Source of the DNA: Escherichia coli
GTDB taxonomy: Bacteria; Pseudomonadota; Gammaproteobacteria; Enterobacterales; Enterobacteriaceae
Assembly (NCBI RefSeq): GCF_050320075.1
Contig: NZ_CP190018.1
DNA: 64,000 nucleotides
Strand: one strand, 5' to 3'
Part shown: in pieces, positions 7,009-7,724 of the stretch
Position numbering within the stretch: position 1 is the stretch's first letter
Layout of the letters: the number at the start of each line of letters is the position of its first letter
Position numbers and translations under genes: made by a program
The notes under the pieces: generated by a model
Database searches by the model: none
What the model saw: only the letters and a program-made list of their open reading frames with translations
Told to the model about the DNA's origin: nothing

Positions 7009-7129
7009 TTGACAACATCTGGTACGATTCGCCCGCAGCCATTACTGACCGCGGGCGAAAGTGTAAAGCAGGTGCCTTACCATCCTGACCTGACAACCGG
7101 ATATGCGGGGATTGCTCCCCGCACAACGG

Positions 7130-7282
7130 CTACTTCTTCGGTTCGTAAGCGAGAACAGCCTTAAACTCAATATTACGTTCCTTCACCGTAAACTCACACA
7201 GCGAGTCGCGGACCAGAAGCGTAAATCCCAGCACCGTTAAACACAGCACTATGACTGCCACAAGGGCATATTTCGTCAGCAT
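7130..7282 (-). CDS. hokE: Hok-family small toxic membrane peptide (type I toxin); overlapping mok-like frame at 7194..7382
   Basis: Translation [50 protein letters not shown] is a canonical 50-aa Hok peptide; overlapping reverse-strand ORF in another frame is consistent with mok. Confidence 0.8.
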
Positions 7283-7724
7283 GTTTATATTGCCTCCATG
7301 CGAAGAAGGGACTACCATCCAAATTGTTTGGGTTTGGAGTGGCAGCCCCAGGGTTGATAGAAATATCGTCCTGGGGCTTCATCTTTCCAGACCTCAGAGT
7401 AAACCTGAAACCGGAAAGCTTCAGGCACCCGCCGTTATCTTACCCTTCCTTAGCAAAATAACTGTTTATTTATACAGTAAGTCCTGTTTCGGACTTCTCA
7501 ATCCTCATTTGATCAACTGAAGCTGAACCCGTTTTTTTCTGCATGCCTCAATCGTCAAAATTCTTCGCCACCAGTCCGCACTGCCATAACTTGTCATATT
7601 GCAAAATGTAGCCAATTTGCTTCAGTCACCATCATCAAAAAAAGAAACATTCCAGAACTTCCGCATCTCGCCCAGTCGCTCCCACTTCTATACTGAATAG
7701 AAAACGCCAACATAAGAGAAACCT

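Follow-up and report, generated by a model that had tools for sequence, protein, structure and literature searches.

We found that positions 7026-7479 of a 64-kb stretch of Escherichia coli DNA (contig NZ_CP190018.1; hereafter the window, in which all coordinates are counted from the first base) very probably constitute a chromosomal hokE/sokE type I toxin-antitoxin locus, present as a single copy and with its IS186 target unoccupied. The hokE/sokE locus found here is already known and already annotated in E. coli.

The hokE open reading frame (7130-7282, minus strand) runs from an ATG at 7282 to a stop codon at 7130 and encodes 50 residues plus stop, in an allele with Val8 and Arg25 that carries the accession WP_000956470.1 in an identical public genome. 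Hok/Gef proteins are about 50 residues long, with an N-terminal transmembrane helix, a conserved R-x-S-L-C-E core and a profile score above the gathering cut-off, and the peptide of the window belongs to this family. It matched Pfam PF01848 (HOK_GEF) with 39.8 bits (cut-off, 22 bits; E = 3.3e-10), with residues 5-46 covered. The hok leader (7274-7430, minus strand) matched the Rfam covariance model RF01794 over its full length with 82.4 bits (cut-off, 59 bits; E = 2e-18). Despite its name, 'sok antitoxin', the RF01794 model recognizes the hok-sense strand, from the leader up to the hok AUG, and not the strand that encodes Sok; the model thus marks the hok leader, and strand calls made from it should be read accordingly. 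Public databases contain the exact 50-residue peptide, named HokE, on at least 1000 contigs. Positions 6900-7800 are 100% identical to E. coli CFSAN061763 (NZ_CP042899.1), in which PGAP placed fepA, entD, hokE and ybdK in the same arrangement as in the window, with entD at 6388-7008 and ybdK at 7725-8843, both on the plus strand. The original prediction of a 50-residue Hok peptide encoded on the reverse strand was confirmed by the exact translation, the Pfam and Rfam matches and the public name HokE, and the flanking genes that it had named, entD and ybdK, agree with the annotation of the identical genome, where hokE is annotated at the same place.

A search for a second hok gene across the 64-kb window found none. 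Outside the window, we observed a distinct second HokE-like paralogue at another locus in E. coli, E. albertii, E. whittamii and further Escherichia (L045-L048, L050 and L052 in our set). The other Rfam matches above gathering score in the window were the ES036/CssrF small RNA at 6288-6329 (plus strand), between fepA and entD, a tRNA at 42129-42202 (minus strand) and the STnc480 small RNA at 63618-63684 (minus strand). PGAP also called an 89-residue 'hypothetical protein' at 7251-7520 on the plus strand. This frame gave no significant family match, is frameshifted in K-12-like genomes and lies antisense to the hok leader and promoter; on these sequence grounds it is probably a spurious call, and we rejected it as a gene.

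To place the RNA elements of the locus, we used a comparison set of 51-54 HokE-type loci from other Escherichia species, Citrobacter, Klebsiella, Kluyvera, Pseudocitrobacter, Enterobacter and related genera. The full-length hokE mRNA would be about 405 nt long (7026-7430, minus strand). Its 5' end was placed from Rfam and the homologue alignment: the RF01794 match begins at 7430, and a conserved 5' GGGTGC opens the alignment in all homologues. A putative hokE -10 box, TAAGAT (7437-7442, minus strand), lies 6 nt before this inferred +1 (G7430), and 51 loci have a TAnnAT box (TAGAAT, TATGAT or TAAGAT) whose distance to GGGTGC does not vary. Neither the hok nor the Sok promoter passed a simple consensus promoter scan of 6950-7750. 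The hok promoter was missed because its -35 region is poor, and the Sok promoter scored 8/12, under the scan threshold; since both reach only about 8/12 of the consensus, we placed them by homology and conservation instead. A terminator scan of the same interval found no canonical intrinsic terminator. We put the 3' end of the mRNA just after a 3'-terminal G+C-rich hairpin, CGCCCGCGG...CUGCGGGCG (7030-7057, minus strand), which is the presumed transcript end and has no U run after it. This hairpin forms a 14-bp stem in the minimum free energy (MFE) structure and is kept in Escherichia and in two Citrobacter homologues, and not in other genera.

The 405-nt RNA is predicted to fold with an MFE of -172.7 kcal/mol (z = -6.9 versus shuffled sequences). 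In this structure, the 5' tac element GGGUGCCU (7423-7430, minus strand) pairs with nucleotides 354-361 of the RNA, with pair probabilities of 0.83-0.93. These nucleotides form the fbi element AGGCACCU (7070-7077, minus strand), the 3' partner of the mRNA 5' end, and the 6-bp core of the tac/fbi helix is paired in all 51 homologues. The tac element can also pair locally, in that CCUGAA of the 5' end (7420-7425) is complementary to UUCAGG at 7404-7409 (minus strand), in a hairpin that excludes the longer 5' stem-loop. This alternative hairpin (alignment columns 5-11/23-29) is 96.9% paired over 51 sequences, against 8-55% for slid controls. Its column pair 7/27 covaries (CG in 20, UA in 19 and UG in 12 sequences, with 19 double changes), and the 5' stem-loop of the hok mRNA likewise shows compensatory changes across homologues. 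The hok Shine-Dalgarno sequence, GGAGG (7293-7297, minus strand), lies 10 nt before the hok AUG and overlaps the Sok -35 box on the opposite strand; the surrounding GGAGGCAA is invariant in 50 of 51 homologues. The Shine-Dalgarno sequence is paired in the fold predicted for the full-length RNA, and on in silico truncation it becomes partly open once the 3' end is removed and the 5' pairing altered. The fold search for tac and fbi elements that had been proposed with the original prediction thus recovered both the tac/fbi closure and the alternative hairpin.

On the opposite strand, we identified a SokE antisense RNA of 61 nt (7326-7386, plus strand) by homology to K-12 sokE (b4835, 60 nt), from which it differs by one substitution and one inserted base. 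It is predicted to fold at -25.6 kcal/mol (z = -3.5) into a long hairpin that is preceded by an 11-nt single-stranded 5' tail and followed by a U-rich 3' end, and its minus-strand complement is the Sok target in the hok leader. Its promoter (7290-7318, plus strand) consists of a -35 box TTGCCT (7290-7295), a 17-nt spacer and a -10 box TACCAT (7313-7318), with the SokE start site at 7326, 7 nt downstream of the -10 box. The promoter sits opposite the hok Shine-Dalgarno region and is identical to that of K-12. The complements of its two boxes, GGAGGCAA and GGATGKTAG, are nearly invariant in the 51-54 loci, and the promoter's counterpart in the alignment with an R1-type locus is the TTGCGC/TATCCT region. 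A promoter of its own, a 5' tail and a stem-loop are the features expected of a cis-antisense Sok RNA, which SokE would be by these marks. Sok had been expected at about 7300-7400, and both the SokE homologue and the promoter for which a search had been suggested fall there. A mir-1990 match in Rfam (19.8 bits, against the 63 needed) was rejected as noise from the Sok hairpin.

The locus differs from that of K-12 above all in its 3' region. In K-12 MG1655, an IS186 copy (IS186B, with insL2) is annotated between hokE (b4415) and entD, and sokE (b4835) lies upstream of hokE. The original prediction had named this insertion and proposed that the locus of the window, which lacks it, may be in an ancestral state, and alignment with the K-12 region agreed on both points. 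Along the whole intergenic region the two sequences are colinear; they differ only by the IS, by a 12-bp indel and by a few SNPs. K-12 IS186B is a simple insertion 22 nt past the hok stop codon, with a 12-bp target duplication, inside a GGGG-N6-CCCC hairpin. The K-12 sequence runs from ...GCGGGGAGTAATCCC through IS186 to GGGAGTAATCCCCGC..., with GGGAGTAATCCC on either side of the element; the hairpin reads GCGGGGAG(C/T)AATCCCCGC, and the insertion point maps between window positions 7108 and 7107. The window has the corresponding post-stop hairpin, GCGGGGAGCAATCCCCGC (7105-7122, minus strand; motif at 7107-7120), as an unoccupied IS186 target, defined by the K-12 junctions, the homologue alignment and the motif match. 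It has a single copy of GGGAGCAATCCC where K-12 has the 12-bp duplication around the IS, which marks the window as the pre-insertion state. No IS186 ends were found in the whole 64-kb window, and no IS lies between entD and ybdK. Nor is any element that is conserved across the 51 homologues disrupted, so that neither an IS element nor damage to the regulatory elements speaks against an intact locus.

The target motif of IS186 is 5'-GGGG(N6/N7)CCCC-3' (PMC5009759, which does not mention hok). The post-stop hairpin of HokE-type loci, GCGGGG-N6-CCCCGC, matches this motif as GGGG(N6)CCCC. In the 64-kb window, the GGGG-N6-CCCC motif occurs only there, and the hairpin is kept in 51 loci with compensatory changes. 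The K-12 copy of fbi lies on the entD side of IS186B and is hence split from hokE by the IS. As read from these sequences, the K-12 IS186 cuts the hokE mRNA between the coding region and fbi, a lesion of which the window and most E. coli are free; because IS186B is absent from the window, fbi and the 3' hairpin stay attached to the mRNA.

To determine how common the uninterrupted form is, we surveyed complete E. coli genomes with a 141-bp probe across the insertion point. The insertion site was uninterrupted in 3647 of 5408 genomes (~67%), and in the remaining ~33% the probe match splits at the duplicated bases, that is, the locus is interrupted at the K-12 site. Lack of the IS does not set the locus apart: since about two thirds of E. 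coli genomes have the IS-free form, it is the ordinary one. IS-free single-copy loci occur, for example, in strain L3452210II, which encodes the K-12 HokE protein itself, and in Nissle 1917; in an evenly spaced sample of the matches, about one-fifth had this single-copy, IS-free architecture. IS150 is additionally present at the locus in some strains. The junction of a tandem hokE array was found in 2395 of 5398 complete E. coli genomes (~44%). E. coli 2014C-3338 (L003:2095-3254) has three complete hokE/sokE units in tandem with a period of ~503 bp, the copies of which differ at a leader indel, and E. whittamii (L006) carries a tandem hokE/sokE array too.

The LexA box, the RNA-editing site and the IS186 target motif had formed no part of the original prediction. 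A strong LexA (SOS) box, TACTGTATAAATAAACAGTT (7460-7479, minus strand), overlaps the hokE -35 region, and 29 nt separate its downstream end from the mRNA 5' end; this exact sequence is unique in the window. It has 3 mismatches to the 20-nt consensus, whereas the K-12 box has 5, and 20 of the 51 HokE-type loci, drawn from several genera, have CTG-N10-CAG at the same position and distance. A near-consensus CTG-N10-CAG over the promoter would make hokE a candidate member of the LexA regulon. Consistent with this, hokE has been listed as a LexA-box gene with an HI of 4.9 (PMC11228462) and as an SOS gene (PMC2826370; PMC1891008); AZT did not induce it (0.47-fold) in K-12, an IS-carrying strain (PMC11228462). 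Within the coding region, the Tyr46 codon UAC (7145-7147, minus strand) is part of a UACG that corresponds to the TadA A-to-I site and is predicted to lie in the loop of a small conserved hairpin. The surrounding GTTCTCGCTTACGAA (7139-7160, minus strand) is nearly invariant among homologues, and two of these (L043 and L056) have a hard-coded Cys at the Tyr46 position. In K-12, A-to-I editing by TadA changes Tyr to Cys in ~40% of hokE mRNA (PMC12214031).

An intact structure could still belong to a locus that is biologically silent, transcribed with too little Hok being made and persisting as a decaying remnant or a selfish element. We regard this reading as doubtful, though as the stronger of the two rivals that we weighed. 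Neither post-segregational nor rifampicin-induced killing was seen with chromosomal hokA, hokB and hokC, IS-free hokA and hokC included, according to Pedersen & Gerdes 1999 as cited in bioRxiv 10.1101/2025.08.07.668861, but K-12 HokE is toxic when overexpressed (same preprint). Indels that change the frame are tolerated in the leader, but across genera both the peptide and the RNA elements show strong conservation, with compensatory changes. IS186 and IS150 have inserted repeatedly without apparent cost, as the third of genomes interrupted at the K-12 site illustrates, but tandem arrays are present in ~44% of genomes. The allele itself can be read in the same light. The window has Val8 and Arg25 where K-12 has Ala8 and Gly25. 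Arg25 is commonest in homologues from other genera and is present in E. whittamii, and Gly25 predominates among the retrieved Escherichia representatives, so that most E. coli alleles would depart from the state that is commonest elsewhere. Toxicity on overexpression survived single alanine replacements of conserved Hok residues. An exact 61-mer around codon 25 was found in at least 280 records, a query that is unreliable for copy number or allele frequency because megablast needs a 28-nt exact word. Against decay, the TadA hairpin is nearly invariant and the LexA box has been kept in more than a third of the loci. Taken together, the conservation, the TadA hairpin, the LexA box, the tandem arrays and the toxicity argue for purifying selection on a working module, and we prefer to read the locus of the window as such a module.

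The original prediction had also included an overlapping mok-like frame. An open reading frame of 62 codons does exist at 7194-7382 (minus strand), with its AUG at 7380-7382, but it is allele-specific and not a conserved mok. It owes its existence to one additional C in the Sok-target hairpin loop, a base absent from most E. coli; an exact 65-mer with the extra C was found in 543 of 5283 records. Where the extra C is lacking, this ATG either reads in frame with hok (K-12, E. albertii) or opens an ORF of ~22 codons that stops upstream of hok, and E. whittamii has the extra C together with a second indel that shifts the frame again. Owing to such 1-nt indels in the Sok-target hairpin, the frame relative to hok is 0, 1 or 2 among alleles. 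A Pfam search with the mok-like ORF gave no match, and the K-12 hokE region is annotated with hokE and sokE and without a mokE.

That this ORF is nevertheless a true mok to which hok is coupled as in R1, with the extra-C allele as the ancestral, functional state, since lost from most E. coli, seems to us highly improbable. It overlaps hok out of frame and ends within hok, as R1 mok does, but it is found in only 2 of 54 loci, and when an R1-type locus is aligned with the window, the mok start of R1 comes to lie elsewhere, on window sequence that has no ATG. Its AUG lies inside the Sok-complementary region, where Sok could block it, but the GGA only 3 nt before that AUG is, as read from the sequence, poorly spaced for a Shine-Dalgarno element. 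The same allele has the Arg25 that is commonest in other genera, but those genera have ACG, ACA, GTG, AAG or TGA in place of the ATG, which is confined to Escherichia hokE. Moreover, no mokE is annotated at K-12 hokE, although mokC is annotated beside hokC. With ATG, frame and position all unconserved and no mokE annotated, we treat the 62-codon frame as fortuitous and probably not a gene. In the absence of a conserved mok, the translation-control step of R1 is not simply transferable to the HokE subfamily.

A second upstream AUG, at 7316-7318 (minus strand), is conserved in 47 of 54 loci. It opens a 12-codon upstream ORF that ends in AUGCUGA in 27 of 54, where its stop codon overlaps hok codons 2-3; in 19 of 54 it is in frame with hok, and in Escherichia it would give an extended Hok of 62 residues. 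The idea that this AUG corresponds in position to the mok start of R1 was rejected, as the AUG aligns with the Sok -10 box of the R1-type locus. Variants in which the ATG is changed to ATA keep the TAnnAT box, which indicates that conservation of the Sok promoter explains the AUG better. A role of the AUG as the start of a leader ORF is ambiguous on this evidence.

A broader reading would be that the HokE-type ('MLTKYAL...') loci of Enterobacteriaceae form a mok-less, SOS-wired branch of hok in which Sok controls hok directly, and that IS186 repeatedly inactivates the toxin by inserting into the post-stop hairpin. The minority allele of the window, a single copy with Arg25, an unoccupied IS186 site and a LexA box close to consensus, would then be fully active, in contrast to attenuated Gly25 or IS-interrupted alleles. 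We offer this reading as a speculation and think it unlikely as a whole.

The identity and the architecture of the locus were read from its sequence; for its workings we drew on the plasmid R1 hok/sok paradigm (PMC9841398) and on the K-12 hokE literature. By analogy, LexA would limit hok transcription, and tac/fbi closure would keep the full-length mRNA inactive and the hok Shine-Dalgarno sequence sequestered. Slow trimming of the 3' end would take off fbi and allow the 5' end to refold. Abundant but unstable SokE would pair with the leader over 7326-7386, leading to decay of the mRNA or to a block of its translation; in hok/sok systems, RNase III cleaves the Sok duplex. A drop in SokE, or a rise in hok transcription after DNA damage, might then allow Hok to be made and to depolarize the inner membrane, and Tyr46-to-Cys editing of the mRNA could possibly raise its toxicity. 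A mok-coupled step of the kind found in R1 is not supported for the HokE subfamily by the loci that we compared.

Among known systems, the locus is closest to K-12 hokE/sokE (b4415/b4835), with which it shares the position between entD and ybdK and the architecture of promoter, tac element, Sok promoter, Shine-Dalgarno sequence and LexA box, at a DNA identity of >95%. It differs from K-12 in lacking IS186B and the 12-bp duplication, in residues 8 and 25, in the extra C of the Sok-target hairpin, which shifts the upstream frame, and in the closer match of its LexA box to the consensus. Like hok/sok of plasmid R1 (RF01794, PF01848), it encodes a Hok-family toxin and has a cis-antisense Sok promoter opposite the hok Shine-Dalgarno region, a tac/fbi closure with an alternative tac hairpin and an mRNA of ~400 nt. 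Unlike R1, it has neither a conserved mok frame nor a mok start where homology would put one, is chromosomal, has a LexA box upstream and encodes Tyr46 rather than a hard-coded Cys, and a role in post-segregational killing is only putative.

The K-12 hokC (gef)/mokC/sokC locus is also chromosomal and has the same conserved post-stop hairpin, GGGGAGTGATCCCC. In K-12, IS186A occupies the homologous hairpin position of hokC with an equivalent duplication, and fbi (GCACCC) is split from the gene. Unlike the locus of the window, hokC has an annotated mokC, belongs to a different Hok subfamily and lies at a different chromosomal site. With tisB/istR-1 and symE/symR, the locus shares a LexA box on the toxin transcript and an antitoxin RNA that is made independently (PMC2826370); unlike in those systems, the toxin and RNA families are unrelated to theirs, and the induction of K-12 hokE has been weak or inconsistent.

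As a discovery, the locus carries little weight: hokE/sokE is annotated in an identical public genome, the inactivation of K-12 hokE by an IS is in the literature, and the IS-free form is the majority state. The strain that was used for most hokE expression work is K-12, which has a version severed from its 3' regulatory element, and an IS-free background suits work on SOS induction and toxicity of hokE better than K-12 does. [quoted passage not shown]
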